Positions 17,252-39,454 of a stretch of 64,000 nucleotides of DNA are shown here, piece after piece. Origin of the DNA: Rhodospirillales bacterium (lineage in GTDB: Bacteria > Pseudomonadota > Alphaproteobacteria > Rhodospirillales > Casp-alpha2); NCBI GenBank assembly GCA_965229805.1, contig CBDDJO010000002.1:925811-989810 (forward strand), written 5' to 3'. The notes under the pieces are model-generated. The model did not search any database and was not told the DNA's origin. It worked only from the letters and a program-made list of their open reading frames with translations. How positions within the stretch are numbered: the first letter of the stretch is position 1; each line of letters begins with the position of its first letter. The position numbers and the translations under genes were made by a program.

Positions 17252-17277
17252 CGCCGTGGCCGGGATTGGGGGAACAC

Positions 17278-17597
17278 TGAGGTGCCCCTAGTTTGCTAGA
17301 CACCTTCCGTGTTCACATTGTGCTGCTGTCGGACTCAATTGCCGTTGACCGGATTTGCGCTTAGTCATCAGAAAAGCACCACTTAAGTCTGTCAAAAGTG
17401 CCAATTAACGATGTCACAATGCCGAATTCGCACCATTAGAGATGTCTGATGCTGAGCGAGTTTTGCCCTGATTTCATAGCGTTGCCGATCCTCCTCGAAT
17501 TGAATGTATGGCTAGGATACCTGTAGAGTGGTGAATTAAGACTGCTGTGCATGATTTGTTGTTTGATGCAGTCATCTAAAAAATCTCATTAAGAAAC
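17278..17597 (-). mobile_element. 3' terminal fragment of an IS3-family element (here called IS-A): terminal inverted repeat plus decayed transposase C-terminus
   Basis: TGAGGTGCCCCTAGTTTGCTAGAC at 17278 is the inverted counterpart of 37826..37849. The minus strand at 17447..17553 still reads ..HSSL.. / ..PYIQFEEDRQRYEIRAKLAQ.., an IS3 OrfB-type C-terminus broken by a frameshift and a stop. Confidence 0.65.
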
Positions 17598-17822
17598 TGA
17601 CCTTGCCCCCAACGTTGGACCGGCCTGAGGCCGAACTTCCCGCTTTCCGGCAGACTTCCTCGACACTCGTGCCCTCGTCAGCCTGCTTAAAAATTACCGC
17701 AATCGCCTGTTCCGAAAATCTCGACGCTTCATCCTCTTCTCCTCGTCTGCCAGCCAAGGCTAAACGAGAAAATTCTCACTTAGAATAGTCCAATTTCCGG
17801 GGTCAGGTCAGGGGGAGGATCA
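17598..17822 (-). mobile_element. Miniature (225 bp) internally deleted IS3-family derivative retaining both termini
   Basis: Left end TGACCTTGCCCCC and right end GTCAGGGGGAGGATCA resemble the termini of the intact IS at 36375..37592. The internal 61-aa ORF (17572..17757, minus) keeps an OrfA-like HTH remnant (SEQAIAVIFKQADEGTSVEEVCRKAG). Confidence 0.6.
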
Positions 17823-17840
17823 AGTCCTGTTAAAATTTAG

Positions 17841-17856
17841 TTGTCATAGACAACAA
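17841..17856. promoter_or_regulatory. Palindromic operator candidate upstream of marR
   Basis: TTGTCATAGACAACAA (palindrome TTGTC-ATA-GACAA) lies 21 bp before the marR start. It is 15/16 identical to 24534..24549. Confidence 0.5.
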
Positions 17857-17876
17857 AAAATGTTACTCGCTCTTTC

Positions 17877-18383
17877 ATGAATACAAAACAAATAGCACCG
17901 GAATCGCTTCTCCCCGAAGCGCTAGAGGATGTCGAAGCGCATTTTGGCGAACTGGCAACGGTAGGCATTCACCTACTGGCGGCGGCGGCAGCACGCCACG
18001 CTGAAGTCAGTTATCTTGGGCATTTCGGGCTGCCACTATTGGAAGCGCGGACGATGCTGTTACTCGGATCAACCGGGCCGGCCTCACTGAAAACGGTGTG
18101 CAAACAAGCCAACATCGAGAAAGCATACGCGAGCCGATTGATTGAGAAACTGATCCGTAAAGGCCTCGTGCAAAAGGTCGAGGATCCTGATGACCGCAGG
18201 GCCGTCAGGCTTACGCTCACCAAAAAAGGAGCAGCACTCAACGCTGACCTGCAGGCCGAGGTCGTTCAACGTAACGACCACCTGATGTCGGTTCTCAATG
18301 CCGAGGAACAGGACATCTTCTTGCGTTGCCTCTCTAAGTTGACCTGGGCGGCCAGGAGCTTGACCGCCATGGAGAAATCATGA
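17877..18383 (+). CDS. MarR family transcriptional regulator
   Basis: 168 aa with a winged-HTH core (SLKTVCKQANIEKAYASRLIEKLIRKGLVQKVEDPDDRRAVRLTLTKKG). Confidence 0.8.
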   Translation: MNTKQIAPESLLPEALEDVEAHFGELATVGIHLLAAAAARHAEVSYLGHFGLPLLEARTMLLLGSTGPASLKTVCKQANIEKAYASRLIEKLIRKGLVQKVEDPDDRRAVRLTLTKKGAALNADLQAEVVQRNDHLMSVLNAEEQDIFLRCLSKLTWAARSLTAMEKS

Positions 18384-19345
18384 ACGCGATCGACAGCCGA
18401 GATGTGCAGTCGTTGATGACGCGGGCAATTGTCCAGGACATCAAACCTGAGGCAGAAGGGGTTCTCACCATGGAATTGGTGCCTGACGGCGAGGCGGAAT
18501 GGCCCGCCGGCGATGCCGGGGCGCATATAGACGTGGAACTGCCGAACGGCACCGTGCGGCAATACTCCGTCATCAATCCGGGGGAGCCGAACAAGTATGT
18601 GATTTCAGCACTCCGCGCACCTGATAGCCGTGGCGGATCCGAGTATATTCACGATCAACTCTCGAATGGTTCGGTCGTACGTGTCAGCCGACCGAGAAAC
18701 AATTTTCCTCTGATTGCGGATGATCGTCCCGTCTGCCTGATCGGTGGCGGGATAGGTGTGACGCCGCTACTTGCCATGGCACAGACGCTCGCCGGGACCG
18801 ACCGGGAATGGCGGCTCTACTATTGTGTGCGCACGCCGGCCCACGCCGGTTTTGGTCGTCTTCTTGACCGGTTCGGCGACCGGGTACGAATGCATTATGA
18901 TTCCGCAAGCGGGAGTCCGCCCGACCTGCAATCAATGGTCGGAGCTTTTGACGACGCACATGTCTATTGTTGCGGCCCGCAGGCCATGCTGACGGCCTTC
19001 GAGCAATGCACCGCGGGATTCCCCAGCGAGTTAGTTCATATCGAACGTTTTTCTCCTGCAGATATACCAGCCGACTCGTCGGCATTCACAGTGGAACTGG
19101 TCCGCCAGGGGCTGACTTTGGATGTGCCGGAGGACAAGTCGATCCTGGACGTAATTGAGGAATCCGGTGTGCAGGTCGAGAGTTCCTGCCGCATCGGTAT
19201 TTGCGGTACGTGCGAGGCAGCCATCGTCGAGGGCGAGGCCGACCACAAGGACGAATACCTGACCGATGACGAGAAAAAGGAGGGGCGCTCGATGATGATT
19301 TGTTGTTCGCGATCGAAGTCGCCCGTTCTCCGATTGGATATCTGA
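18380..19345 (+). CDS. PDR/VanB-type oxygenase reductase (flavin/NAD plus C-terminal [2Fe-2S])
   Basis: RQYSVIN, GGGIGVTP and the C-terminal CRIGICGTCEAAIVEGEADHKD motif. Overlaps the marR stop by 4 nt. Confidence 0.85.
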   Translation: MNAIDSRDVQSLMTRAIVQDIKPEAEGVLTMELVPDGEAEWPAGDAGAHIDVELPNGTVRQYSVINPGEPNKYVISALRAPDSRGGSEYIHDQLSNGSVVRVSRPRNNFPLIADDRPVCLIGGGIGVTPLLAMAQTLAGTDREWRLYYCVRTPAHAGFGRLLDRFGDRVRMHYDSASGSPPDLQSMVGAFDDAHVYCCGPQAMLTAFEQCTAGFPSELVHIERFSPADIPADSSAFTVELVRQGLTLDVPEDKSILDVIEESGVQVESSCRIGICGTCEAAIVEGEADHKDEYLTDDEKKEGRSMMICCSRSKSPVLRLDI

Positions 19346-19434
19346 GCCCTTACAACGCGTGAATATGACGATTGCCGACCGGAGGCCATACAACCTTCGG
19401 CCCTTAAAACTGCAATAAAATGGGAGTGCACCAA

Positions 19435-20700
19435 ATGACCAGCTTCGCCAGCTTGATTGAACCGGACCGGATACATGGCAGCCTCTATACCGATGCAGCC
19501 ATCTTCTCACGGGAGATGAAGGTCATCTTTCGCGATGGCTGGGCATTCGTCGGTCACGAGTCCGAAGTGCCCGAGCCCGGCGATTTTATCACCCGGACGA
19601 TCGGGTCGGAGCCCGTACTTTTCCTGCGGAACAAGGACGGCGAGGTTCGGGTGTTCTCGAACCGTTGTACCCATCGAGGTAACAGGCTCTGTCATGAAGG
19701 GCGCGGCAAGTTGCGTGGCGGAATTATGTGCACTTACCATGGTTGGGCGTTTTCGTTCGACGGCGATCTACTGGCGGTGCCGTACGAGGGCGGTTTTACA
19801 AAAGCGAAGGAGAACTATTCGCTACGCCAGCCGAGAATGGCGAGCCACCGGGGTTTCGTATTCGCCACGTACAATCCCGATCCAGAGGATTTTTACGATT
19901 ACCTAGGGTATGGGAAGGACCTGATCGATAAGTCGGTGTCAATGTCGCCCGCCGGCAAGGTCCGGTTGGACTCCGGGTGGGTAAAGCATCTTTTCAAGGC
20001 GAACTGGAAGATGCTGCCGGAGAACCAGACGGACGGTTATCACGCAAACCACGTCCATAAGTCTTTTTTGAAGGTTTTCAGTTCACAGTATGACGAATTG
20101 AAAACCAACGAAGAAAAGCGTGTTGGATCCGTCGTCGACTGGGGGAGCGGTCACGCGTCGATTGATGTTTCCGAACGCTACAACGGGCCGCTCCAATGGC
20201 TTGGCTCCAATGAGGAACGCTATCCGGAATACGTCAAAGCCATGAACGAGGCTTACGGGGAAAACGACGCGCGCAAGTTGATGACGGAGGGTCCGCCGCA
20301 TGCGTATATATTCCCGAACCTTTTCCTCGGCGAAGCCAACATCGTCATCATCGAACCGGTCGCGCCCGACCTGTCGGTCCAGCACCATTCCCCGATGCTG
20401 TTGGAAGGCGTGCCGGAGGGGTTGAATGCAAGGATTATCCGCCAGTCGGAAGGAGCGCTGGGTCCGTCCGGGTTGCTGCTCGCCGACGACTCCGTGATCT
20501 CCGAACAACAGCAGATTGCCTTGCAGGGCAAGAGCGGTTGGCTCGAAATCAGCCGGGGCGTCGACCGTGAACGCGTCGAGGACGGAAAGCGGATCGGTCA
20601 CGTCAGCGACGAGACCACGAACCGGGGCTTCTGGCAGCATTATCTTGCCAAGATGAATGGAAGCTCGGTGGAAACCCCCGTCGAACCGGAGCTTGTGTAA
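19435..20700 (+). CDS. Rieske aromatic ring-hydroxylating dioxygenase alpha subunit (IpfA-like context)
   Basis: Rieske motif CTHRGNRLCHEGRGKLRGGIMCTYH and iron motif ENQTDGYHANHVH. The ATG at 19435 is preceded by GGGAG; an alternative ATG lies at 19420. Confidence 0.85.
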   Translation: MTSFASLIEPDRIHGSLYTDAAIFSREMKVIFRDGWAFVGHESEVPEPGDFITRTIGSEPVLFLRNKDGEVRVFSNRCTHRGNRLCHEGRGKLRGGIMCTYHGWAFSFDGDLLAVPYEGGFTKAKENYSLRQPRMASHRGFVFATYNPDPEDFYDYLGYGKDLIDKSVSMSPAGKVRLDSGWVKHLFKANWKMLPENQTDGYHANHVHKSFLKVFSSQYDELKTNEEKRVGSVVDWGSGHASIDVSERYNGPLQWLGSNEERYPEYVKAMNEAYGENDARKLMTEGPPHAYIFPNLFLGEANIVIIEPVAPDLSVQHHSPMLLEGVPEGLNARIIRQSEGALGPSGLLLADDSVISEQQQIALQGKSGWLEISRGVDRERVEDGKRIGHVSDETTNRGFWQHYLAKMNGSSVETPVEPELV

Positions 20701-21203
20701 TGACGACAGCAAACCTTTTGCCAACCGAGGTTTATCGTGAAATCGAGGAATTCGTTTACCGCGAAGCCCGACTGGCCGACGAGTCCCGTTACGGGGAATG
20801 GGAGGAACTGGTCGACGACGACATGATGTATTGGATTCCCAGGGGCGAAGGGGGTTTCGACATGGAAAAGCATGTGTCCGTCATCGCCGATAACCGCAAT
20901 CGGTTGCGCCGCCGTATCAAGCAGCTGCAGACCGGCGCACGCTATGCGCAAGTGCCGGTATCGCCCATGCGCCGCCTCGTCTCTAATATCGAAGCGAAAC
21001 CGATTGCCGACGACGAGTTCAATGTGCAATGCAACTTCGTTCTCTATGAACTGCGGATTCAATCGACGAACAATATCGAAATCTGGCCCGGCCGGATCGA
21101 GTATAAACTTCGCCGCTCGGAAGACGGTTTCAAGATGTTCCTGAAGAAGGTCATGCTCGTGAATGGCGACATGCCCCTGCCTTCGCTGGCATTTCTTCTC
21201 TGA
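20700..21203 (+). CDS. Ring-hydroxylating dioxygenase beta subunit (NTF2/SnoaL fold)
   Basis: 167 aa with a typical beta-subunit N-terminus (EIEEFVYREARLADESRYGEWEELVDDDMMYW). Its start overlaps the alpha-subunit stop. Confidence 0.8.
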   Translation: MTTANLLPTEVYREIEEFVYREARLADESRYGEWEELVDDDMMYWIPRGEGGFDMEKHVSVIADNRNRLRRRIKQLQTGARYAQVPVSPMRRLVSNIEAKPIADDEFNVQCNFVLYELRIQSTNNIEIWPGRIEYKLRRSEDGFKMFLKKVMLVNGDMPLPSLAFLL

Positions 21204-21252
21204 GGCCTTTTGGTCTTGTCTGCAGAGCCACGCAAGCAGCGAAGAGTGACGC

Positions 21253-22422
21253 ATGACTGATGCCTTGGGCGCGGTAGTTGGCCTGGGCATGAGTCCGGTG
21301 TCGCGCAAGAACATAGGCACGACGCGGGACCTCGCGGTCCTGGCTGCACGGAACGCTATTCGGGATGCCGGATTCTTGCCGGGTGACGTCGACGGGCTGC
21401 TTCTCAACCGCAGCCCGTCCGCACCGGTCAAAGATCTGCCAATGAGCATTCTGGCGGATCTCGGTCTGGAAGATCTCGGGGTCCTCGCGTGCATCGACGC
21501 CGAAGGCACGTCGGCAATTCAGATGATCGAATACGCATGCATGTCGATCCGTTCAGGCGCCGCAAAATCAATCGTTTGCATTTTTTCCGATGCCCGCCTG
21601 TCCGGCGGTGGCGGCGCCGAGGCATATGCCAGCACAATGCCGGTGACGGGGCTCACGGACTGGGAAGCGCGGTACGGGTTGTACGGTGCAACGGGCCCAT
21701 ATGGGTTGTTGGCGCAGCGGTATCTGTGGAAATACGGGCTGGACTGCGCGGCGCTGGGGCATGTCGCGATATCCAACCGGCGATGGGCAGAGAACAATCC
21801 TCTGGCCCAATTACGTGAACCGATCACGATGGAAGACTATCTCTCGGCAAGATGGGTCGTAGAGCCTTTCCGGCTGCTCGATTGCGCATATCCGGTAAAT
21901 GGTGCGGCTGCAGTTGTCGTGACGGCACCTGACGTCGCGTCGGACCGTCCATGCGCCCCCGCTTTTATCCATGGCGTCGCACAGGGTCATTCCGGGCAGT
22001 TGGCCGCAAAAGCAACTGAAGACGGCGATGCCGGCGCCGAGCGGGCTGCGCGCGAGGTTTATGCGATGGCCGGCATCCAGGCGGACGATGTGGAAGCCTG
22101 CGAATTCTACGACAATTTCACCTATGTAACGTTGCGCACCCTGGAAGATTACGGACTGTGCCGGCGGGGCGAAGCGGCCGGTTTTGTTGAGGCAGGACAA
22201 ATATCTCCGGGCGGACGTTTGCCGACGAATACCGGTGGAGGTCATCTGTCCGGTTATTATCTTCAGGGAATGACGCCGGTCTCCGAAGCCGTGATCCAAA
22301 TTCGCGGTGACGCCGGGGCGCGTCAGATAGACAAGCGCGATGTCATTCTCGTTACGGGTGTCGGCGGGATGCTGAACTACCATGCAGCGATGATCATGAG
22401 CGCCCAGCGGAGGCTGTCATGA
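21253..22422 (+). CDS. SCPx-type thiolase-like protein (IpfD/Ltp-like)
   Basis: 389 aa with a thiolase-fold layout and a C-terminal NTGGGHLSG segment. It is translationally coupled to a DUF35 gene. Confidence 0.7.
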   Translation: MTDALGAVVGLGMSPVSRKNIGTTRDLAVLAARNAIRDAGFLPGDVDGLLLNRSPSAPVKDLPMSILADLGLEDLGVLACIDAEGTSAIQMIEYACMSIRSGAAKSIVCIFSDARLSGGGGAEAYASTMPVTGLTDWEARYGLYGATGPYGLLAQRYLWKYGLDCAALGHVAISNRRWAENNPLAQLREPITMEDYLSARWVVEPFRLLDCAYPVNGAAAVVVTAPDVASDRPCAPAFIHGVAQGHSGQLAAKATEDGDAGAERAAREVYAMAGIQADDVEACEFYDNFTYVTLRTLEDYGLCRRGEAAGFVEAGQISPGGRLPTNTGGGHLSGYYLQGMTPVSEAVIQIRGDAGARQIDKRDVILVTGVGGMLNYHAAMIMSAQRRLS

Positions 22423-22820
22423 CGGATACCTCTGCGACGGGCGCAAGGATTAGACCGAAAAGCGATTTCGACGACGCGTTTCATGAATATATTGGAAGGC
22501 GTGAATTACGATTGCCGTATCTGCGCGGCTCATCGACGGCTCTCGATCTGAATGCCGCGCCTGCTACCGATATGACGGAGATCGAGTGGCGGTTGGCCTC
22601 CGGCCTGGCCGAGCTTTTTTCATTCGTTGTCTATCGGCAACAGTTCTCGGAGGACCGCGCCGCGCCTTACAACGTTGCCTGGGTGTCGTTAGCGGAAGGA
22701 CCGATGCTGATCTCCACAGTCATAGTGGAGCAGAATTCCGAACTGAGAATTTCGATGCCGTTAAGGGCCGAATTCGACGATCGCGGTGTCCTTGTGTTCC
22801 GACCGGCACAAAATCGCTAA
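22419..22820 (+). CDS. DUF35 OB-fold protein (thiolase partner; Zn-ribbon cysteines absent)
   Basis: 133 aa with an OB-fold-type C-terminal half (YNVAWVSLAEGPMLISTVI...ISMPLRAEFDD). Has a 4-nt overlap with the thiolase-like gene. The protein contains no cysteine at all. Confidence 0.6.
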   Translation: MTDTSATGARIRPKSDFDDAFHEYIGRRELRLPYLRGSSTALDLNAAPATDMTEIEWRLASGLAELFSFVVYRQQFSEDRAAPYNVAWVSLAEGPMLISTVIVEQNSELRISMPLRAEFDDRGVLVFRPAQNR

Positions 22821-22848
22821 CAGGCCTATTTGCGGGAGTTTACAGACG

Positions 22849-24438
22849 ATGATGTTGCCACGTGATTTGCTTCGGAATTGTGCATCGAACTATCCGGACA
22901 GGCCGGCCTACTTCTGGCGTGACGAGACACGGACCTGGCAGGAGATGAAACGACGTTCGGACCGCCTCGCGGGCGCGTTCATGGAGCTTGGAGTCGAAAA
23001 GGGTGATGTCGTCGCCATTCTTGGTCGGGAGTCGCTGGTGATATACGAGCATTTCTTCGCCTGCATGACGCTCGGCGCCGTGCGGGTGGGTCTCAACTGG
23101 CGTTATTCACCCGGCGAAATTCTACATATCCTGCAGGACTCCCGCCCCCGCGTGCTGTTGCTTCAAGCGGATTGTGCTTCGTTGATCGAGACGCTGGAGC
23201 AGGATATTGCCGATCTGGGTACGCGGGTCATTCTTTACGGCGATCCCGGGGGTGCGCCGCTCGAGTACGAGGAAATGATCGATGTTGCCGTCGCACCGTC
23301 GGCGTTGCCTGATCTTGAAAGCGAAGATCCAATGTTCATTTCGTACACCTCCGGTTCTACAGGGCGACCTAAAGGTGTCGTACATACCCAATACTCGTCG
23401 GCATATATCATTTTTCAAAACCTGGTCGGGCGCGGCCTTGCACCGAACGATATATTCCTCCAGGCCTCCGCGTCGTCTTGGATGACCGTACTTTTGAATA
23501 TGCTCGGTCTCGGGAACGGCATGGCCCACGCCATCATGGACGGAACGTTCGAGATCGTGAGTTTTATGAAGCAGATCGACCGGCACCGGGTGACGTCGAT
23601 AATGCTGGTGCCGACGCTGCTTCAGCGCGTTCTGCAGGAGCGTGCGAAGGGCGATTACGATCTGTCATCGATCAGGTTGCTTAACTACGGGTCCTCGCCG
23701 ATTACGCCTGAACTTGCGCGATCCGCTTACGCCGCTTTTGACTGTGATCTGATCCAGAATTACGGCATGACAGAGGGCGGTTGGGTGACGCACCTGTCCG
23801 CAGACGATCATGTGAAGGCCGTCAACCGCGAATACAGCCTGCTGGAATCGGTCGGCCGCCCCGGCGTTTTGACGAGGATATCGATCAGAAACGCCGATGG
23901 TGAGGAACTGCCTCCTGGCGAAGTCGGCGAAGTCTGTCTCAACAGCCCGATGCTGATGAAAGGCTATCTCAATCTTTCGGACGCGACGGCTGAAGCGCTC
24001 AAGGATGGATGGCTGCACACCAACGATCTCGGTTGCCTGAACGAGGAGGGGTATCTTTTCCTCCACGGGCGCAAGAACTTCATGATTATCTCAGGGGCGG
24101 TTAACGTGCAACCGCAGGGTGTCGAACTTGTCATTTCGGAACATCCTTCGGTGTTCGAAGTCGCCGTGGTCGGCGCCCCCCATCCGGATTTGGGCGAGGC
24201 CGTCGTCGCCGTGGTCGTCTGCAAGCCAGGAAAAGAAGAACCGACCCAACGCGACATTGAATCGTTCTGCCTCGCGCGCCTGAGCAAGCTGTCCATCCCG
24301 AAGCACGTATATATCGTTTCGGAACTACCGAAAACGCTGAACGGAAAACTCAATAAGCCGAAGATTATCGAATGGGTGCAAGAGAATCTGCATGCACTTC
24401 CCTGGTTCAGCGTGCAGGGCGCCGCAGGTGGACAATAA
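22849..24438 (+). CDS. AMP-forming acyl-CoA ligase (ANL superfamily)
   Basis: ISYTSGSTGRPKGV AMP-binding motif, plus YGMTEG and WLHTNDLG motifs and a C-terminal LPKTLNGKLNK. Started at the ATG at 22849 within the listed ORF. Confidence 0.85.
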   Translation: MMLPRDLLRNCASNYPDRPAYFWRDETRTWQEMKRRSDRLAGAFMELGVEKGDVVAILGRESLVIYEHFFACMTLGAVRVGLNWRYSPGEILHILQDSRPRVLLLQADCASLIETLEQDIADLGTRVILYGDPGGAPLEYEEMIDVAVAPSALPDLESEDPMFISYTSGSTGRPKGVVHTQYSSAYIIFQNLVGRGLAPNDIFLQASASSWMTVLLNMLGLGNGMAHAIMDGTFEIVSFMKQIDRHRVTSIMLVPTLLQRVLQERAKGDYDLSSIRLLNYGSSPITPELARSAYAAFDCDLIQNYGMTEGGWVTHLSADDHVKAVNREYSLLESVGRPGVLTRISIRNADGEELPPGEVGEVCLNSPMLMKGYLNLSDATAEALKDGWLHTNDLGCLNEEGYLFLHGRKNFMIISGAVNVQPQGVELVISEHPSVFEVAVVGAPHPDLGEAVVAVVVCKPGKEEPTQRDIESFCLARLSKLSIPKHVYIVSELPKTLNGKLNKPKIIEWVQENLHALPWFSVQGAAGGQ

Positions 24439-24530
24439 GGCCGTAAGGCCCGCGCGTTATTGAAAGCGCTTGGGCCCGAACCCGGGACATGTTGAGTTTT
24501 CAGGCTCATGTGGGCGGCAGAGAATGAAAA

Positions 24531-24549
24531 TTGTTGTTATAGACAACAA
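24531..24549. promoter_or_regulatory. Palindromic operator candidate upstream of the island TRAP operon
   Basis: TTGTTGTTATAGACAACAA is a perfect 7-bp-arm palindrome that shares TTGT[CT]ATAGACAACAA with 17841..17856. Confidence 0.5.
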
Positions 24550-24627
24550 ATAATGATAGTTATCATGTTAACTAAATAGAGACACCGGGCTCCTTGTGAG
24601 ATCCAAGGTTCCCATTGGGAAACATTC

Positions 24628-25137
24628 ATGGGCGATATCTTCCAGAGACTCGTGAACGGGTTGAACAACGTACTCCTTGCCGCATCGGGAATTCTTCTAT
24701 TCCTGATGATGCTGCATATCTGTTTGGGTGCCGCTTTCAATCTCGTCCTGCCGACCGTCAACTTGAACACGCTGACGGTTGTCGCCGCTTGGTACATGAT
24801 TGGCGTCACCTTCCTGCCGATGGCGAATACGCAACCGCTCTCAGTGAATATCGCTGCCGGGTTCTTGCCCGATGCCTTTCGCAAGACGGTTCGCTATGTC
24901 GTGGCCTTGCTGTCGGCGATCGCGTTCGGTTTTATCGCGTACCTGACGTTTGAAGAAGCGATGTCTCAGACGCAGATCGGCGAAATGTGGGAAACCTCGA
25001 CCGGGTTCTTCCCCGTCTGGCCGGCGCGCTGGCTTCTACCATGCGCCTTCATAGCCATGTCTTTGCGGGAAATATGCAAGGTTTTCGTGCCCGGGGCCAT
25101 GGAGCAAGCCGTGGCTTCATCGGCGGGGAGCGATTGA
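24628..25137 (+). CDS. TRAP transporter small permease (DctQ-type)
   Basis: 169 aa, 4 TM, directly followed by a DctM-like gene. Confidence 0.8.
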   Translation: MGDIFQRLVNGLNNVLLAASGILLFLMMLHICLGAAFNLVLPTVNLNTLTVVAAWYMIGVTFLPMANTQPLSVNIAAGFLPDAFRKTVRYVVALLSAIAFGFIAYLTFEEAMSQTQIGEMWETSTGFFPVWPARWLLPCAFIAMSLREICKVFVPGAMEQAVASSAGSD

Positions 25138-25138
25138 T

Positions 25139-26446: not shown

Positions 26447-26471
26447 GCAAACCAAGATAGGAGGCAACATC

Positions 26472-27587: not shown

Positions 27588-27675
27588 ACGCCAGACAAAC
27601 GATCTGATTAACTTTCGGCGGCACCGCGCCCATCCTTGGGGCGGTGTCGTCACTTTTGGAAGCGGAGTGTGACGC

Positions 27676-28821: not shown

Positions 28822-28838
28822 AATGGATCGATGCCGCG

Positions 28839-29351: not shown

Positions 29352-29522
29352 GAAACTCGTTCTTGGTCCTCAATTCCCGCATTTCGTTTGCCAGTTCGGT
29401 TCGACGATAGAAGAGGCGTGGGATGCCACCGGTATACGAACGTCGCGATGCGGCTGCCACCTGTTGCGTTTCAATTATGGCCCGTCGAGCGTCTTATACG
29501 GCGGCATCCTCGCATGACCTGA

Positions 29523-30380: not shown

Positions 30381-31282
30381 GTCAGAAGCCCTGCATCCTT
30401 GAGTACCGATTCTAAACGTTCTTCGAGTTCCGGGGTTGCCGGCAGTAGCGGCAAGCGGTGCTCGTTCACCTCCAGCAGACCGCACATCTTCATCATCGCC
30501 TTCATGGGAATGGGGTTGATGTCGAAAAAGACGGCTTCATTCAGATGATAGAGCTGCCGATGCAGCGCCCGTGCCGCCATCAGATCGCCGCGCCATACCG
30601 CTTCGCAAAGGTCGGACAGCGGCTTTGGATTAATATTGCCGACCGCGTTCATCAGTCCGCACGCGCCGATGGCCATCATGGGAAAAGACAGCTCTTCTAG
30701 GCCGACAAAAACCCGCAGGTCCTCGCTGATCGCATCGAACAGGTCGGAAACGAACCCCAGGTCAAGCGAGGCGTGCTTGAGGCCGACGAACGTGGGGCAC
30801 ACGGCATCGATGCTGCGGATCGTTTCCAACTCGACGGAGACGCCGGCGCGCCCCGGGATGTGATAGATCATCCACGGTTTATCATGCAGTTCATTGAGAC
30901 GCCGGTAATACTCCACCATGCCCCGTTGCGGTGGACGGGAGTAATAAGGCGTCACGATCAAAAGTGCATCGACGGCTGAGATGGCCGCGGCGTATCGAGT
31001 GAGCGCTTCGGTTTCGGTGTAGGATTGCGATCCGGAGGCTACGATCACCTGACCCCGCCCGGCAGCGGCCTCGACGGCGACGTCTACGAGCCGGTTACGC
31101 TCGTCAACGGTAAGGGACGAAGGCTCCGATGTTGTGCCGTTGACCAGCACCCCGTGGCTGCCGTTTGCGAGCTGGAACTCGACCAGTTCGGCATATTTCC
31201 GGTAGTCGACTTCGCCGCCGGAAAAAGGTGTCACGATGGGGGGAATCGAGCCGCGAAGCTCGGTTTCTTGAAGAGCTAGCAT
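30377..31282 (-). CDS. DHDPS/NAL family class I aldolase (DapA-like)
   Basis: IPPIVTPF...GSHGVLVNGTTSEPSSLTVDER and a YYSRP-type segment, typical of dihydrodipicolinate synthase-family aldolases. Confidence 0.75.
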   Translation of the reverse strand: MLALQETELRGSIPPIVTPFSGGEVDYRKYAELVEFQLANGSHGVLVNGTTSEPSSLTVDERNRLVDVAVEAAAGRGQVIVASGSQSYTETEALTRYAAAISAVDALLIVTPYYSRPPQRGMVEYYRRLNELHDKPWMIYHIPGRAGVSVELETIRSIDAVCPTFVGLKHASLDLGFVSDLFDAISEDLRVFVGLEELSFPMMAIGACGLMNAVGNINPKPLSDLCEAVWRGDLMAARALHRQLYHLNEAVFFDINPIPMKAMMKMCGLLEVNEHRLPLLPATPELEERLESVLKDAGLLT

Positions 31283-31391
31283 GTGAAATCTCGCTGTGCC
31301 TTGCGCGGGTTTGAGTTTGACGTTTAGTAATGAACATGTTAACTACTATACGAAATGAAAGCAATACGATTGTTGGCGAAGGAGTCATCGA

Positions 31392-31796
31392 ATGCCGCAT
31401 TTGACGCTGGAGTATTCCGCGAACGTCGAACAGTTCTGCGAAATCTCCTCGATGTGTTCGGTCGTCAGGGAATCCGCCCTCGGCACGGGTGTTTTTCCGC
31501 TTGGCGGTATCCGGGTTAGGGCTCGGCGCTGCGACCATTACTCGATTGCCGACGGCCGTCTCGAATGCGCATTCATCGATGTCGAAATAAGGATCGGTGA
31601 AGGCCGCTCGCTGGAGGTCAGGAAAAATTGCACCGAGACCATATTCGCCGCACTCGTCGAGCATCTAGGCGACCTTTTTGAGCGCATCCCACTTGGCGTT
31701 TCCATCGAGCTTAGGGAAATCAGTGCCGACTTAAGCATCAAGAAAAACTCGATCCACAAATGGGTCGAACAAGACAAATCTGCCGCAGGAGAATAA
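31392..31796 (+). CDS. hpaF: 5-carboxymethyl-2-hydroxymuconate isomerase
   Basis: Begins MPHLTLEYSANV (catalytic Pro1 after Met removal). Collinear with the E. coli HpcD/HpaF pattern (GVFPLGGIRVRA..., IRIGEGRSLE). Confidence 0.8.
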   Translation: MPHLTLEYSANVEQFCEISSMCSVVRESALGTGVFPLGGIRVRARRCDHYSIADGRLECAFIDVEIRIGEGRSLEVRKNCTETIFAALVEHLGDLFERIPLGVSIELREISADLSIKKNSIHKWVEQDKSAAGE

Positions 31797-31800
31797 TAAG

Positions 31801-33324
31801 ATGAACGTGATCGCACCCGATTTGGCGGCTAATGCCCGCAAGTACCTGGAGCGCTATAACGAGTCAGGCGTGCTCAATCAGATCGACGGCCAGGCCGTGC
31901 CGGCGGTGTCCGGCGAATGGTTTGAAACGACGTCGCCCGTGGATCTGACGCCTCTCGCCCGTGTGGCAAAGGGGGGGGCGGACGACGTTGCGCGCGCCGC
32001 CAAAGCGGCAAAGAAAGCGTTTCCGGCATGGGCGGCTATGCCGCCGAAGAAGCGGCAGAAGTTATTGCACGATATTGCCGATGCCATCGAAGCCCGCGCA
32101 CCTGAAATCGCTGCGCTCGAATGCCTCGATACAGGGCAGGCCATGCGCTTCATGTCAAAAGCCGCGTTGCGCGGGGCCGAAAACTTCCGCTTCTTCGCGG
32201 ATCGCTGTCTGGAAGCCGCTGACGGTTTGGCGTTGCCGTCACCGGATCATTACAATGTGACCTCGCGCGTGCCGATCGGTCCGGTTGGCATTATCACGCC
32301 GTGGAACACGCCGTTCATGCTCTCCACATGGAAGATCGCACCCGCGCTTGCGGCCGGATGCACGGTGGTCCACAAACCTGCCGAATTGTCGCCGATCACG
32401 GCACGCCTGTTGGTCGAAATTGCCGAAGAAGCAGGCCTGCCGCCGGGCGTCTGGAATGTGGTCAACGGCTTCGGCGAAGATGCCGGCAAGGCGTTGACGG
32501 AATGTCCCGATATCAAGGCGATTGCCTTCGTCGGCGAGTCCGCTACCGGCTCCGCGATCATGGCGCAGGGTGCATCCACGCTGAAACGTGTGCATTTCGA
32601 ACTTGGCGGCAAGAACGCCGTGGTCGTATTTGCGGACGCGGATCTAGATCGGGCTCTCGAAGCGACGATCTTCATGATTTACTCGCTGAACGGGGAGCGT
32701 TGCACCTCATCCAGCCGGGTATTGGTCGAGGAGAGTATATACGAGGAATTCACGGCCAAGATTGCCGAACGGGCGAAGAACCTGAAAGTCGGGCATCCCC
32801 TCGACCCGGAAACCGAGGTTGGCCCCCTGATTCATCCGAATCATGCGTCCAAAGTGCTTTCGTACTTCGATGTCGCCCGGCAAGAAGGTGTGACGATTGC
32901 CGCCGGCGGGTCCGCCTTCGACGGCCCAGGCGGCGGGTGCTATGTTGCGCCGACGTTGTTCGTAGATGCGAAAAGCGAGATGCGCGTTTCACAAGAGGAA
33001 ATCTTCGGACCGGTTCTGACGGCCATCCCCTTCCGTGACGAGGCCGAGGCAATTGAGATCGCCAACTCCGTAGAATATGGACTGGCCGGATACTTGTGGA
33101 CCAACGATATATCACGCGCATTCCGGGTTTCGAACGCGATGGATGTCGGCATGGTCTGGGTCAACTCGGAAAACGTACGCCATTTGCCGACCCCCTTCGG
33201 CGGCATGAAGGCAAGCGGGATCGGCAGGGACGGCGGGGATTATTCTTTCGACTTTTACATGGAGACTAAGAACATTGCCTATGCGACCGGTTCGCACAAA
33301 ATTCCGAAACTGGGCGGCAACTGA
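31801..33324 (+). CDS. NAD-dependent aldehyde dehydrogenase (5-carboxymethyl-2-hydroxymuconate semialdehyde dehydrogenase-like)
   Basis: ALDH motifs GIITPWNTP, the FELGGKNA catalytic Glu region, the NGERCTSSSR catalytic Cys region, and EEIFGPV. Confidence 0.85.
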   Translation: MNVIAPDLAANARKYLERYNESGVLNQIDGQAVPAVSGEWFETTSPVDLTPLARVAKGGADDVARAAKAAKKAFPAWAAMPPKKRQKLLHDIADAIEARAPEIAALECLDTGQAMRFMSKAALRGAENFRFFADRCLEAADGLALPSPDHYNVTSRVPIGPVGIITPWNTPFMLSTWKIAPALAAGCTVVHKPAELSPITARLLVEIAEEAGLPPGVWNVVNGFGEDAGKALTECPDIKAIAFVGESATGSAIMAQGASTLKRVHFELGGKNAVVVFADADLDRALEATIFMIYSLNGERCTSSSRVLVEESIYEEFTAKIAERAKNLKVGHPLDPETEVGPLIHPNHASKVLSYFDVARQEGVTIAAGGSAFDGPGGGCYVAPTLFVDAKSEMRVSQEEIFGPVLTAIPFRDEAEAIEIANSVEYGLAGYLWTNDISRAFRVSNAMDVGMVWVNSENVRHLPTPFGGMKASGIGRDGGDYSFDFYMETKNIAYATGSHKIPKLGGN

Positions 33325-33336
33325 TCCGATATCGAC

Positions 33337-33699
33337 ATGAGCCTCTACGAGACGCAGAAATTGCTCTACCACCTCAATCGGGAGCCGAAGCTGAAAGCAA
33401 GCTTTCTGGAAGATCACGATGCGGTGTTGAGGGATTACGGCCTGACAGAAGAAGAGGCGGGCGCCGTACGCGATCATGATATCGGCCTGCTTTACGTATT
33501 AGGCGTCAATGGACAAATCCTCATGCACTTTGCGGCAATGCTCGGTATTGCCTGGAGCGATTACCTCCAATTGATGCGTGACGGCGTCGAGCGGCACGGC
33601 CCGGTTCGCGCGGGGGTGTATAAACTGTCAGGCTACGAGGGCGTCGAAGCTCACGACCGTGCGTTGCGGGAAAAGCGAAACCAAAAGGCGAAAGGGTAA
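33337..33699 (+). CDS. LigA-like small subunit of a class III extradiol dioxygenase
   Basis: 120 aa; the YETQKLLYHLNREPKLKASFLEDHDAVLRDYGLTEEE pattern is typical of protocatechuate 4,5-dioxygenase alpha-type subunits. Confidence 0.7.
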   Translation: MSLYETQKLLYHLNREPKLKASFLEDHDAVLRDYGLTEEEAGAVRDHDIGLLYVLGVNGQILMHFAAMLGIAWSDYLQLMRDGVERHGPVRAGVYKLSGYEGVEAHDRALREKRNQKAKG

Positions 33700-33705
33700 T
33701 ACGGC

Positions 33706-34524
33706 ATGCCATTGGTTTACGCCGGCGTGTGTTCTCATGGGCCGGGCATCACGGCAAGATCGGATCAGGCGGACCCGGATACCCGGGGACGGTTCTACGG
33801 CGCACTCCGTGCCATGGGCGACGAAATTCGCGCTTCCGGCGCGGAGCTTCTTATCGTGGTCGCAGCAGAGCATTTCGCGAACTTCTTCATGAACAACATG
33901 CCGGCTTTTGCAATGGGGATGGCGGACACCTACGAGGGCCCGATTGAAGATCCGGATTGGCTGAAGATCGCGCCGGTCAAGGTGCCGGGCGATGCGGAAG
34001 CGTCGCGTTCTTTGATCTCTTCGGTATTGGAAAGCGTCGACGTCGCCTATGCGGAGGAATGGAAATTCGATCACGGTATTATGGTGCCGTTGCATTTCCT
34101 GACACCGGCGTACGACCTGCCTGTGCTGCCCTGTAACATAAACTGCCAGGGGCCGCCGTTGACGCCGTTGTACCGTGCCTGGGCATTTGGTGAGGCCTTG
34201 CGCCGCGCTTGCGACAGCACGCCGCGGAATATCGCGCTTGTCGGTACCGGCGGTATATCTCATTGGCCGGCGACACCTGATTCTGGGAAGATCAATGAAC
34301 CCTGGGACAGGACCTTCATGGATCGATGGGTGGCGCAGGACAAGGAAGCGCTTCTTTCCTATAGCGATGCGGATATCTATCAGGACGCCGGGCAAGGTGG
34401 CTTCGAAATTCGCACCTATATCGCTGCTGCGGCTGCTGCCGGTGGGTTGGGCAAAATCGCGTTTCTCGAGCCGATACCGATTTTCGCGACAATGGGGGTC
34501 GTTGCTTCGAAAGCTGTCATATGA
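33706..34524 (+). CDS. LigB-family class III extradiol ring-cleavage dioxygenase, catalytic subunit
   Basis: 272 aa with N-terminal CSHGPGI and AAEHFANFF histidine-containing segments and GGISHWP, typical of the LigB family. Confidence 0.8.
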   Translation: MPLVYAGVCSHGPGITARSDQADPDTRGRFYGALRAMGDEIRASGAELLIVVAAEHFANFFMNNMPAFAMGMADTYEGPIEDPDWLKIAPVKVPGDAEASRSLISSVLESVDVAYAEEWKFDHGIMVPLHFLTPAYDLPVLPCNINCQGPPLTPLYRAWAFGEALRRACDSTPRNIALVGTGGISHWPATPDSGKINEPWDRTFMDRWVAQDKEALLSYSDADIYQDAGQGGFEIRTYIAAAAAAGGLGKIAFLEPIPIFATMGVVASKAVI

Positions 34525-34680
34525 ACGACGTTGCGGAAGACGGGGCATCCCCGATATTGCAGCCACTGTCCAGATTGTATTAGTCCGGCGAACTTTGAAT
34601 TGAGAGTAAGAATTGGTGAGGTCGCCGCCGATGAGTTGGGGTGGTAAACAACTGTAACTTTGGTGCGCCGTCGATGATGA

Positions 34681-34881
34681 ATGCGACATGTGCCGAGGGC
34701 GAAATTTCCGGTTCCAGGGATGGCGACCGATGAAATGCCGCCTGCATCGAATCGGGGCGAACACAATCGGGAGATCCTTGCCGAGTTCGGTCATGGCGAG
34801 GATGACGTTCTGCTGCTGTCGGAGCGGGGCATTATCGTCTGCACCCGGGCCTCAACTTGTGACGTTTCGTTCACATGGTAA
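34681..34881 (+). pseudogene. 3' remnant of a family III CoA-transferase gene
   Basis: The ORF reads ..PPASNRGEHNREILAEFGHGEDDVLLLSERGIIV.., which is the conserved C-terminal P-x-x-G-E-H-x-x-x-[IV]-L...G tail of CaiB/BaiF enzymes. No upstream catalytic domain is present. Confidence 0.6.
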
Positions 34882-35780
34882 TTCAAGGAAACAAGCGAAT
34901 GCGGAATGCAGGGAAGAGGTTGCCCGGGACGCCTCAACCGTCAGATGTCTGGACGGCCCGCGACGGGATATCTATTGCCGGCGATCAATGGGGCGATCCG
35001 TCCTGTCCTCTGGTCATTCTGCAGCACGGCGGGGGACAGACCCGTCATGCCTGGAAGAATACTGGAGAAACCCTAGGGGCAGCCGGTTATCACGCAGTAG
35101 CACTTGATGCACGAGGGCACGGAGATTCCGGTTGGGCGGATGCCGGTCACTATGGTGTCGATCATATGATCGACGATATAGACATGGTCGTTGAGGCGCT
35201 CGGCGGCAAGACGCCAATCCTGGTCGGGGCTTCGATGGGGGGCGCCACTAGTCTTGTTGCGGTAGGCGAAGGAAAGATTGCCGCAAAGGCTTTGGTGCTG
35301 GTCGATATTGCGCCCCGAATTGATCAGGAGGGACATCGTCAGATTCAGGCGTTTCTCGACCAATACCCAGAGGGCTTCGAGACGCTCGAACAGGTTTCCG
35401 ACGCAATTGCCAACTACCAACCGCACCGTAAAATGCCGAGAAATCTGGATGGTCTGGCCAAAAACGTACGTCTGGGTGATGACGGCCGCTACCATTGGCA
35501 CTGGGATCCAGTATGGCGTCATGGCCGCGGGTCCATGCAAGCATACCAAGACCGTCTCCGCGAAGCGGCATCGCGCATAGCAGTACCGACGCTATTGATT
35601 CGCGGCGGTCTTTCCAACGTTTTGACAGAAGCCGGTGCAAGAGAGTTTCTCGCGCTTTGTCCGCATTCGGACTACGTGAACATCCCGACTGCTGCACATA
35701 TGGTTGCCGGAGATCGAAATGACGTTTTCGCCGATGCGGTTGTGGAATTTTTAGGACGGGCTGTAGGGGGCGACCGATAA
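34875..35780 (+). CDS. Alpha/beta hydrolase fold protein
   Basis: HGGGQTRHAW oxyanion region, GASMGG nucleophile elbow, and a C-terminal AAHMVAGD histidine. Confidence 0.8.
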   Translation: MVIQGNKRMRNAGKRLPGTPQPSDVWTARDGISIAGDQWGDPSCPLVILQHGGGQTRHAWKNTGETLGAAGYHAVALDARGHGDSGWADAGHYGVDHMIDDIDMVVEALGGKTPILVGASMGGATSLVAVGEGKIAAKALVLVDIAPRIDQEGHRQIQAFLDQYPEGFETLEQVSDAIANYQPHRKMPRNLDGLAKNVRLGDDGRYHWHWDPVWRHGRGSMQAYQDRLREAASRIAVPTLLIRGGLSNVLTEAGAREFLALCPHSDYVNIPTAAHMVAGDRNDVFADAVVEFLGRAVGGDR

Positions 35781-35887
35781 ATTGATGGCTTGGATAGGTG
35801 TTGGTTTTTTGCATTCATTGATTGGTAGAAAACGACCCCAATACCTATCTCTCCATCTAATATACGCATTGCTATGATGGGAACGAA

Positions 35888-35899
35888 TGACCTGCCCCC
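35888..35899 (+). repeat. Solo IS3-family terminal repeat-like 12-mer
   Basis: TGACCTGCCCCC is identical to the left terminus of the IS at 36375. It is in the same orientation, and no transposase gene follows it. Confidence 0.45.
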
Positions 35900-36058
35900 A
35901 TAAACGGACTAAGTAGCTGGCATTGGTCAGGTCCGGAGACGTAGACGGAATTGCTTGAAACTAGATGAGCTAGCTTGAGGGTGTGTGACCGAAGTTGGCA
36001 GGCGAAGTCCCTCCAGTGAAATGGTATACTTTACCGGTTAGATACGTTGGGGTAGGTC

Positions 36059-36295
36059 ATGCGGGATTTTGTGGAGAACTTAATCGCTATCGCGGGAGAT
36101 GAGAGCATCGTCGCGAAACGCGTCGCCGAAATGGAGGCGTCCGATTACAACGACTTGATGCATCGTATCGACGAGATCATGGAATTGAATGAAGGGGTTG
36201 GGCCCGACTCAGTTCGGGACACAGAAATGATCCAATGGCTTATGCGCGCATCCGTGGTGGCCGAGTATTATGAAAAGCGGACGTTTGATGTCTGA
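36059..36295 (+). CDS. Hypothetical small acidic protein
   Basis: 78-aa ORF with no motif I recognise. It lies between a solo IS terminus and an intact IS. Its coding status is uncertain. Confidence 0.3.
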   Translation: MRDFVENLIAIAGDESIVAKRVAEMEASDYNDLMHRIDEIMELNEGVGPDSVRDTEMIQWLMRASVVAEYYEKRTFDV

Positions 36296-36408
36296 GATAT
36301 GGAGGCGCGTGTATTAAGTCGCCGCCAGGTGGATCGCCAAACAGCATCCTTATTGATTTCGGAATAGTTTGAACTGACCTGCCCCCGTTGACTGGTCCGA
36401 GTGGAATG

Positions 36409-37224
36409 TTAGTGCATCATCGGTTTTTCCTCCAAGGGAATGATGCTCTCTGGTGCTGGCGGCCTGTATCCCAAAGCTGAGTGTGGCCGCTTCGTATTGT
36501 AATGCCGTTGCCATTGTTCGATGACGATTTGAGCTTCTTTGAGGCTGTAGAATACCTCTCCGTTGAGCAGTTCGTCCCGGAACCGGGCGTTGAAGCTCTC
36601 GCAGTATCCATTCTCCCAGGGTGAACCAGGTTCGATGTATGCGGTCTCCGCGCCGACGGCTTTGATCCACTGCCTGACGGCGTCTGCGATGAACTCCGGC
36701 CCGTTGTCGGAGCGGATGTACGCTGGAACACCTTGGACGATGAACAGATCCGTCAGCGCGTCGATCACGTCCGTGGAGTTCAGCTTCCGCTTCACTCGGA
36801 TCGCCAGACATTCGCGGCTAAACTCATCGATGATGTTCAGCATTCTGTATGCCCGACCATCCTCCGTCCGGTGATGAACGAAGTCGTATGACCAGACATG
36901 ATCAATTCGCTCCGGCCTGAGACGGATGCACGAGCCGTCATTCAGCCACAGCCGGCCTCTCTTCGGCTGTTTCATGGGAACCTTCAGCCCCTCACGGCGC
37001 CACAGGCGTTCGACCCGCTTATCGTTCAAATGCCAGCCTGCATCTCTCAACATCGCGGCGATCCGCCGATAACCGTAACGCCCATATTGCCGAGCCAACT
37101 CGATCATATCCCGAACAAGAAGATCTTCATCATCACGGGACTTCGGCACATACCGTTGCGTGGATCGATGCTGCTTCAGCACCAGGCAGGCCCGGCGTTC
37201 GGTGATGTTGAACTTACCCCGCAC
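36409..37224 (-). CDS. IS3-family transposase OrfB (DDE integrase domain), normally expressed as an OrfAB frameshift fusion
   Basis: ERRACLVL.., YGYRRI, WSYDFV, the DNGPEF DDE region, and a YNTKRPHSALGYRPPAPE tail. The frame stays open upstream (GKLLSPARRRTCIDLV) in the -1 frame relative to the orfA end. Confidence 0.85.
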   Translation of the reverse strand: MRGKFNITERRACLVLKQHRSTQRYVPKSRDDEDLLVRDMIELARQYGRYGYRRIAAMLRDAGWHLNDKRVERLWRREGLKVPMKQPKRGRLWLNDGSCIRLRPERIDHVWSYDFVHHRTEDGRAYRMLNIIDEFSRECLAIRVKRKLNSTDVIDALTDLFIVQGVPAYIRSDNGPEFIADAVRQWIKAVGAETAYIEPGSPWENGYCESFNARFRDELLNGEVFYSLKEAQIVIEQWQRHYNTKRPHSALGYRPPAPESIIPLEEKPMMH

Positions 37225-37256
37225 CAGATCGATGCAGGTGCGGCGCCGTGCGGGGC

Positions 37257-37559
37257 TCAGAAGTTTCCCTTCGCGGCCTCTGCCAATATGAGCTTATCCA
37301 GTGTGAGATCGGAAACGGCCCTGCGAAGTCGTTCGTTCTCCTTCTGAAGCCGCTTCAACTCTTTGAGTTGATCCGTGCCCATGCCGCCGTATTGCTTGCG
37401 CCATCGATAATACGTCTGCTCTGTAATCTGCACCTGCCGAATGGCATCAATCCTCGGCTGGCCTTGCCCAACAAGGACATCAACCTGACGCAGCTTCGAG
37501 ACAATTTCTTCCGGTTTGTGTCGTTTCGTTGCCTTCTTTGGTCCTCCGTTTCCTATCAT
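37257..37559 (-). CDS. IS3-family transposase OrfA (HTH plus leucine zipper)
   Basis: 100 aa; TEQTYYRWRKQYGGMGTDQLKELKRLQKENERLRRAVSDLTLDKLIL. Confidence 0.85.
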   Translation of the reverse strand: MIGNGGPKKATKRHKPEEIVSKLRQVDVLVGQGQPRIDAIRQVQITEQTYYRWRKQYGGMGTDQLKELKRLQKENERLRRAVSDLTLDKLILAEAAKGNF

Positions 37560-37574
37560 AACCGGTGGACCAAT

Positions 37575-37790
37575 TCAGTGGGGGAGGATCAACAGCTCAC
37601 GCTTCAATCGCCGGATCTCCGCGTCCTTGTCATCGCCGCCGGCAGGTTCCGAGAACTTCTTCTTCCAGGCGTAGAGCGAATGTGCACTCACGCCGAGGCG
37701 CTCTGAGACCTCCGAAACCGGATAACCCCGCTCGGTGCTCTGACGCACTGCGTCCCGTTTGAAATCGTCACTGAAATTGGCTTTGCCCAT
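37575..37790 (-). pseudogene. Truncated IS3-family OrfA of IS-A
   Basis: MGKANFSDDFKRDAVRQSTERGYPVSEVSERLGVSAHSLYAWKKKF...AEIRRLKREL. The frame then runs into the IS-B terminus (LILPH-stop). Confidence 0.75.
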
Positions 37791-37849
37791 GTTAGCCTCC
37801 TTGCCTCAAATTTAGGGAAGAAAGCGTCTACAAATCTAGGGGCACCTCA
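37593..37849 (-). mobile_element. 5' terminal fragment of IS-A (terminal inverted repeat plus truncated orfA), cut by the IS-B insertion
   Basis: The minus strand starts TGAGGTGCCCCTAGATTTGTAGAC. Its first 14 nt are identical to 17278..17291, with about 22/26 matches overall. Confidence 0.7.
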
Positions 37850-37850
37850 T

Positions 37851-38078: not shown

Positions 38079-38297
38079 TCAACATCTTCGAAGGGGACGC
38101 CGAGATTCAGACGCAGGTCATCGCCCGCGGCCTTCTGGAAGACAAAAACTGAGAATGCGCAAACGCTCTCATCTGCATAGGCGATCCTACAGAAACATAT
38201 CCATAACTGAGGCTGATAGGGGGTGAGCCGTGATGAGAACTGAATGGAGTGACTTGAAGCTCAGACAGTAATCAGGTCAGAGCACCTCAAAAACAAT

Positions 38298-39429: not shown

Positions 39430-39454
39430 AGTCTGACGTCAGCCGTTTGAGTTG

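Follow-up and report, generated by a model that had tools for sequence, protein, structure and literature searches.

Classical catabolic composite transposons such as Tn5280 consist of degradative genes bracketed by two copies of one insertion sequence (IS). In Rhizorhabdus wittichii MPO218, the ipf genes of plasmid pIBU218 are flanked by copies of IS6100 and are lost by deletion; a pccB mutant of the same strain shows poor, leaky growth on ibuprofen, and propionyl-CoA carboxylase is functionally tied to the ipf pathway (PMC9195938). Both arrangements invite comparison with a locus in a 64,000-nucleotide stretch of DNA from a Rhodospirillales bacterium (hereafter the window; coordinates are positions in it, position 1 being its first letter), where genes for aromatic-acid degradation occupy a 20.6-kb interval, 17278–37849, that ends on both sides in IS termini. 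A first-pass annotation of this sequence took the interval for a catabolic island, acquired as a composite-transposon-like unit and enclosed by one broken IS3-family element. We lean toward a different reading, in which the interval is a resident aromatic-acid degradation cluster of an uncultured marine Rhodospirillales clade and IS3-family elements have left scars, one over another, at both of its borders. So read, the locus is a case of ordinary IS-driven rearrangement, an IS-scarred mosaic junction, and not a newly inserted mobile island. IS-A, IS-B, and IS-C are our working names for the three different IS3-family elements at the borders; IRL and IRR denote left-hand and right-hand terminal inverted repeats, L-numbers are our labels for contigs used in the comparison, and P-numbers are those for proteins or protein clusters.

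Like the classical composite transposons, the window has IS-B ends that bracket the cargo in direct orientation, and one IS-B is intact. Unlike them, it has only 12 nt of a second IS-B and shows no target duplication, and relatives that lack these IS have the cargo as a resident cluster, with no second location known. With the ipf region of pIBU218 the window shares a module of Rieske alpha/beta oxygenase, thiolase-like protein, DUF35 protein, and CoA ligase, and in both cases IS copies stand on either side of the catabolic genes, which tend to be lost through IS-mediated deletion. The Rieske alpha subunit of the window is 52% identical to an oxygenase on R. wittichii plasmid NZ_CP059320.1, which we take to be pIBU218. 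Whereas the ipf genes are plasmid-borne and lie between intact IS6-family copies, the window belongs to a large, presumably chromosomal replicon and has IS3-family relics and one intact IS; its lower pathway, moreover, is of the Hpa type, with a LigAB-type dioxygenase.

Gene order in relatives carries our reading. Relatives at 95–96% nucleotide identity hold 16.8 kb of the cargo (17829–34638) beside the same DctPQM-MFS-ETF block that follows it in the window, without IS-A or IS-B. In three contigs of a widely sampled relative cluster (P0361; L155, L157, and L158), window positions 25930–34638 are collinear at 95.3% identity and are followed by 54 nt, a 1.1-kb IS with HTH_32 and rve_3 domains, and then the counterpart of 38284–49430 at 96.5%; the cargo has the same orientation as in the window and lies 1.2 kb from the DctP block. 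Three further contigs (L164 to L166) match 17829–29344 at 95.3% and have on their left a prophage-like flank that ends in a large serine recombinase. Where they overlap, L164 and L155 are 99.9% identical, so that the relatives hold 17829–34638 as one block beside the same right-hand block. The first-pass annotation had itself named the same 20 kb without IS sequences as what would tell against an island, and that is largely what the relatives offer: 16.8 kb in place without IS-A or IS-B, with a different IS at the right junction. Cluster and DctP block were therefore already neighbors when IS-A and IS-B came in, and the interval of 20.6 kb cannot have landed as a unit in an IS-A here, unless it hopped to a site beside its own origin.

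At the left flank, the relatives preserve an order that the window has lost. In L122, L123, L161, and L162 an acylphosphatase gene follows 4 nt after pccA, and MaoC, LplA, and MgtE come next. In the window, all that is left of this arrangement is a junction remnant (17252–17277, plus strand, recognized by alignment and by the relatives' gene order) that keeps the GTG start codon at 17256–17258; homology to the relatives ends at 17263. Because the relatives run from pccA into acylphosphatase and the window keeps the start codon alone, the junction between pccA and the cluster is the derived one, and among the relatives examined it has no counterpart. The first-pass annotation was right that a rearrangement took place, and it lies at this left junction. 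No closer empty site came to light: the nearest pccA relatives all have pccA followed by acylphosphatase, and no same-species strain lacking the junctions was found.

Composition gives no island signal. Tetranucleotide usage in the cargo correlates with that of both flanks at r = 0.89–0.92, and its GC content is 56.7% against 55% in the flanks; the only outlier is pccBA, outside the interval. A cargo that is compositionally like its flanks, and of which no second copy turned up in the plasmids or contigs searched, speaks against the composite-transposon-like acquisition that had been proposed. No tRNA was found, and no integrase domain lies in the interval. A horizontal island should be absent from the same position in relatives, but in L155, L157, and L158 the cluster sits beside the right-hand block. 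The bracketing expected of a composite transposon amounts here to one intact IS-B and a 12-nt exact IRL tip at the opposite edge, with no target duplication around the whole unit.

The outer termini of the interval were correctly recognized as facing inverted ends like the IRR and IRL of one IS3-family element type. Positions 17278–17307 and 37820–37849 form a 30-nt inverted pair that is 83% complementary, and the 14-mer TGAGGTGCCCCTAG, the first 14 nt of the IS-A terminus, occurs in two exact copies in the window against 0.22 expected. In a scan of one genome per species, the IS-A-type terminus pattern was found at more than 119 loci, nearly all of them in marine Rhodobacterales and other Alphaproteobacteria; where both ends are present the element is typically 1225 bp long and has two distinct end types. 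The left end in the window, ..TAGTTTGCTAGACACC, is of the IRR type of these full-length elements (..TAGTTT(C/G)CTAGACACC), and the right end, ..TAGATTTGTAGACGC, is of their IRL type. Both window termini thus belong to one IS3-family type, and the suggested check, a search for these termini at the ends of IS3-family elements, located them on full-length 1225-bp elements. IS3-family elements in general have inverted repeats of 20–40 bp with TG...CA termini, a length of about 1.2 kb, and two genes, orfA for a helix-turn-helix (HTH) protein and, in the -1 frame, orfB for one of the DDE (rve) type. The 30-nt termini agree with this, and full-length IS-A relatives carry both genes; the window copy of IS-A is a fragment that keeps only the orfA N-terminus.

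At the right end this fragment (37593–37849, minus strand, with a match to HTH_Tnp_1) comprises the IRL and orfA codons 1 to about 66, where it is cut by IS-B. It is the truncated OrfA of about 257 bp that had been described, and its closest plasmid counterpart named here, the IRL end of an IS3-family element of 1220 bp from Pannonibacter, matches it at 81% identity. The left end is much shorter than had been thought. Of the 320 bp or so of decayed OrfB C-terminus once assigned to it, only about 68 bp (17278–17345, minus strand) align with IS-A-type IRR ends, and they comprise the IRR, a stop codon, and approximately the last eight codons of orfB. BLAST matches to 60 loci end at about 17336–17345, the sequence from 17346 to 17597 has no similarity to IS3 orfB, and tblastn and blastn searches of 17200–17900 with a full-length IS-A orfB detected no orfB remnant. 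About 900 bp of IS-A are missing from the window. The outer flanks, CAC on the left and TTT on the right, do not show the target duplication of 3–4 bp typical of the family, as already noted at first pass, and in no genome examined are the acylphosphatase stub and the interior of the RraA-like gene contiguous.

IS-B at the right border is intact, much as had been claimed (1218 bp, 36375–37592). It occupies 36380–37591 on the minus strand, its left edge being placed at 36375 or 36380, and has terminal inverted repeats, an orfA of 100 aa, and an orfB of 271 aa that is open in the -1 frame across the orfA stop; over its full length it is 72–75% identical to annotated IS3-family elements on plasmids of the Roseobacter group. 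The exact IS-B OrfB occurs in 19 metagenome contigs, at this locus only. IS-B is inserted in the orfA of IS-A, and IS-A in an RraA-like gene (class II aldolase family), of which a pseudogene remnant is left at 37850–38283 (minus strand, Pfam positions 44–100 of 152). IS-A cuts this gene where the profile reaches position 100 of 152, and the N-terminal part of the gene has degenerated, which agrees with the earlier description of the right flank as a truncated RraA-family gene. No target duplication was seen at IS-B (flanks GTT(TGAAC) and ACA), and this is consistent with an adjacent deletion. Positions 38252–38283 are common to the window and to L135–L139, which share the DctP block from 38252 onward and have an IS6-family element there, and are lost in L155; the sequence next to RraA must accordingly predate the junction seen in L155.

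Between the conserved cargo and IS-B lies a lineage-specific segment (34639–36379, plus strand, distinguished by comparison with relatives and by GC content at third codon positions, GC3). It holds an alpha/beta hydrolase gene (34875–35780), whose GC3 of 0.54 is the lowest in the window, and a 78-aa open reading frame (ORF) with no Pfam match. The segment has no counterpart in any relative fetched, and it may have come with IS-B or have been deleted elsewhere. Two smaller observations belong to this border. Three independent Logan contigs (L127, L131, and L133) start at 37562, exactly 30 nt inside the IRL end of IS-B, the pattern expected if that end were repeated elsewhere in the sample. In L155, a spacer of 54 nt (8711–8764 of that contig) that parts the cluster from the IS481-like element ends in TGACGTGACCCCC, an IS407-like inverted-repeat tip; the relatives' border thus bears older IS3-type scars too.

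The inner left edge proved to be different from its description as a 225-bp miniature IS-B at 17598–17822. That stretch has no more in common with IS-B than two pieces, of about 30 nt and 13 nt. It consists of a 213-bp IS-C miniature (17598–17810, minus strand), assigned by its own inverted repeats and an orfA remnant, and of an exact 12-nt copy of the IS-B IRL tip, GGGGGAGGATCA (17811–17822, minus strand), which occurs exactly twice in the window, the second copy being the IS-B end at 37580–37591. Of the statement that IS-B-type elements lie in the same orientation at both inner edges, the right-hand half holds, while the left shrinks to a 12-nt tip beside a different miniature IS. In the IS-C miniature, 31 nt of an IRR end run straight into the N-terminal part of a frameshifted orfA, a 5′ untranslated region, and an IRL; its inverted repeats (17598–17620 and 17788–17810, 24 nt) are 75% complementary. 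Its minus-strand peptide RFSEQAIAVIFKQADEGTSVEEVCRKAG matches HTH_Tnp_1 with E=7e-5 at 23.4 bits, below the cutoff of 24.1, and its nucleotide sequence is about 70% identical to Rhizobium and Agrobacterium IS3 elements ending ...GGGGGCACGTCA. By these resemblances, the miniature would derive, through an internal deletion, from a third element of the IS3 family. Just right of the IS-B tip, 1–6 nt from it, the cargo begins to match the relatives.

A non-coding filler of 252 bp (17346–17597, no strand assigned, 44% GC) separates the IS-A relic from IS-C. It has no nucleotide or protein similarity to orfB and no match among plasmids, and among the sequence sets searched it was found only in the same-population contig L124; a scan of JGI metagenomes with a 25-mer taken from it found nothing. 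Rfam returned no match over 17200–17900, and the possibility that the filler is, for example, a fragment of a group II intron was rejected on that ground. One IS inside another is the usual picture in nested and decayed IS3 clusters, and nested insertions are common in IS-A-type elements of other genomes, as in the elements at 3806–6625 of L079 (Thalassovita, one IS110-family insert) and 82–4269 of L053 (Pseudooceanicola, two such inserts). What sets the window apart from such ordinary clusters is solely that three different IS3-family lineages are piled at one border.

Could these pieces nonetheless be those of a single IS-A, split by an IS-B-bounded composite transposon that carried the cargo, as the first-pass annotation had it? 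The two IS-A termini are of the same IS type and point outward like the ends of one element, the IS-B ends stand in direct orientation around the cargo, and the right IS-B abuts the interior of IS-A. In its full form the model makes IS-A a hybrid, the product of recombination between a copy in the acylphosphatase gene and one in the RraA-like gene, which would explain both the non-contiguous outer flanks and the missing target duplication; later deletions would have taken 900 bp from the middle of IS-A and left next to nothing of the left-hand IS-B. We think this unlikely. The cargo is already beside DctP, in the same orientation, in relatives free of IS-A and IS-B, so the transposon must have landed next to the place it came from. 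Nor does the left IS-B adjoin IS-A: 252 bp of unrelated filler and IS-C stand between them. The exact OrfB of IS-B was found at this locus only, and the plasmid collection yielded no copy of the cargo, which also speaks against the model.

There is, in our estimation, an almost negligible chance that the whole 20.6 kb is a transposase-less cassette with IS-A inverted repeats, moved in trans by IS-A transposase as an outsized mobile insertion cassette would be. The 30-nt termini at the two outer edges are whole and point the right way, and elements of the IS-A type are abundant in related marine genomes, one of them about 10 kb upstream of the DctP block in L135. Yet such a cassette should be framed by a target duplication and by flanks that are contiguous somewhere, neither of which is seen; the cargo is linked to its right flank in relatives that lack the termini; and neither a second copy nor an empty site was found.

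We consider moderately likely a history that involves two copies of IS-A and a cluster that stayed where it was. At the right border, IS-A would have inserted in the RraA-like aldolase gene between the cluster and DctP, and IS-B would then have inserted in IS-A. An adjacent deletion may next have taken the rest of IS-A, about 970 bp with orfB and IRR, along with the RraA-like gene's C-terminal part and whatever lay beyond 36379. At the left border, a second IS-B copy would have come to abut the cluster, so that two direct copies of IS-B bracketed it for a time. IS-C may then have inserted 12 nt inside the IRL of this left IS-B and later have lost its own interior, and everything further left may have been replaced through recombination or deletion with another IS-A copy, located in the acylphosphatase gene. 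The outcome would be the 68 bp that remain of the IS-A copy that truncates that gene.

Several points weigh against this history. The two IS-A pieces are oriented exactly as are the two ends of one element, and a model with two copies must put this down to a 1-in-2 chance or to direct repeats. We infer the order of events and did not observe it. The 252-bp filler and the hydrolase segment at 34639–36379 are left unexplained by the model, and the polarity of the right junction rests on the 32 nt shared with L135-type relatives. The reciprocal junctions lie beyond the sequence compared, which comprised the window and the contigs and not the whole source genome. Finally, little weight attaches to the missing target duplication: of the seven full-length IS-A-type copies elsewhere that have readable flanks, only one shows such a duplication.

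The border structure seems to be fixed in the population. The junctions occur at 99.9% identity or better in more than 20 contigs from several metagenomes, and contigs from many samples repeat the order of the right junction: LigAB, hydrolase, 78-aa ORF, IS-B, truncated IS-A, truncated RraA-like gene, DctP. The left junction is also present in L124, which differs from the window at 46 positions, all within a 1.2-kb part of pccA (15511–16733), and at none in the next 2 kb, which span the IS relics. Since the same junctions recur across contigs and L124 has no mismatches over the IS relics, the structure appears to be fixed, with no sign of recent movement, and is not an artifact of assembly. 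The cluster of mismatches in pccA is either a recombination tract or the result of a strain-chimeric assembly. An apparent alternative junction in L134, where the first 56 nt are unmatched, was rejected as Nextera adapter sequence.

A possible recombination tract in pccA also figures in an explanation that makes the IS relics bystanders, old insertions that happened to lie near the breakpoints of an IS-independent deletion or recombination that joined pccA to the cluster. The region is a general hot spot: depending on the lineage, its borders are taken up by IS6-family, IS481-like, or IS3-type sequences or by prophage-like ones with a serine recombinase. We find this explanation doubtful, however, since homology to the relatives breaks off on the left 14 nt before the IS-A terminus and resumes within a few nucleotides (1–6) of the IS-B tip, and breakpoints at IS ends are the signature expected of IS-mediated events. 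The case for IS-driven scarring of a resident cluster shows that facing IS termini can imitate an island in a split IS, and that relatives reveal the resident cluster and its IS hot-spot borders; neither the IS scars nor the cluster changes the accepted picture of how IS behave or how catabolic genes move.

The conserved cargo itself (16.8 kb, 17824–34638, plus strand, annotated with Pfam and NCBIfam and matched in relatives from 17829) falls into two parts. The upper part encodes a MarR regulator, a reductase, Rieske alpha and beta subunits, a thiolase-like protein, a DUF35/OB protein, a CoA ligase, a TRAP transporter (DctQMP), and a CoA-transferase III. The lower part encodes a MarR regulator, HpaG-like and HpaI-like proteins, 5-carboxymethyl-2-hydroxymuconate isomerase (CHMI), HpaE, and LigA/LigB, after which comes the alpha/beta hydrolase. 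HpaE scores 783 bits against an equivalog cutoff of 638, the HpaG-, HpaI-, and CHMI-type matches are below their own cutoffs, and the dioxygenase is of the LigAB type; as a set, HpaE, HpaG, HpaI, CHMI, and an extradiol dioxygenase are predicted to form an Hpa-type meta-cleavage pathway.

By domains, the upper part holds an ipfABDEF-like set (CoA ligase, Rieske alpha/beta, reductase, thiolase-like, DUF35). Its Rieske alpha subunit is 52–55% identical to IpfA-type plasmid oxygenases, among them the ones from R. wittichii and S. granuli, which degrade ibuprofen. No related unit turned up on plasmids, and the next Rieske homologue away from this locus shares 60% identity. The five-gene ipf-like module is kept in the unrelated contigs L153 and L154, with other transporters and no IS nearby. 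Exact-protein look-ups of the pccA product and of the Rieske alpha subunit gave no match, and a megablast comparison of the whole cargo with plasmids gave only hpaE-level matches at about 72–75%. The locus documents an ipfABDEF-like aryl-acyl-CoA dioxygenase module with an Hpa-type lower pathway in uncultured marine Rhodospirillales, and a presence/absence polymorphism among relatives: in L156, L159, and L160, of the same group, the cluster is lost from its start to about codon 50 of LigB. The prophage-like flank of L160 is 99.9% identical to that of L164; L160 is without an equivalent of 17829–33843 and carries, in place of the cluster, 686 nt with a LysR fragment and a 5′-truncated LigB. A palindrome, GTTGTCATAGACAAC, lies at 17840–17865, before the MarR-reductase-oxygenase operon, and again at 24533–24558, before the TRAP transporter genes; it is kept in relatives and is probably a MarR operator.

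To the left of the interval are pccB and pccA (13556–17251, plus strand, assigned by Pfam), core genes for propionyl-CoA carboxylase. They are 86% identical in nucleotide sequence to the Rhodospirillales metagenome-assembled genome contigs L122 and L123, and the pccA product is 89–92% identical in amino acid sequence to the nearest relatives' proteins, of which those with a source label (P0003 and P0008) are from a Rhodospirillales metagenome-assembled genome. The GC3 of pccB is 0.82 and that of pccA 0.86, against 0.54–0.72 for every other scored gene of the window, the adjacent ScfR-type regulator included. In relatives, other genes fill the 5.6 kb that lie between pccB and pccA; in the window, ScfR-pccB-pccA (11588–17251) now stands directly upstream of the ipf-like module (17877–24438). 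The ipf module in ibuprofen degraders releases propionyl-CoA. The adjacency of pccBA and the ipf-like module could be functional or coincidental. We regard it as very unlikely that an IS-A transposase could still move the 20.6-kb cassette in trans, or that the IS-mediated fusion which put an ipf-like aryl-propionate pathway just downstream of ScfR-pccBA was kept for the release of propionyl-CoA.

The conserved right-hand block (38284–49430, plus strand), which neighbors the cargo in relatives too, encodes DctPQM, an MFS transporter, an enoyl-CoA hydratase, ETF alpha and beta, ETF-QO, a CoA-transferase, and 2-oxoglutarate dehydrogenase E1. A palindrome, AAATGGAAAGCATTCCATTT, that looks like an operator lies upstream of DctP at 38298–38319, also in L135 and L155, and recurs some 25 kb downstream at 63133–63154 and 62125–62154. 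In the same block, the CoA-transferase III gene at 47120–48091 encodes 323 aa, and in same-population contigs a separate fragment of 58 aa is called upstream of it; relatives have a gene of 405 aa, and the window copy is probably a frameshifted pseudogene.

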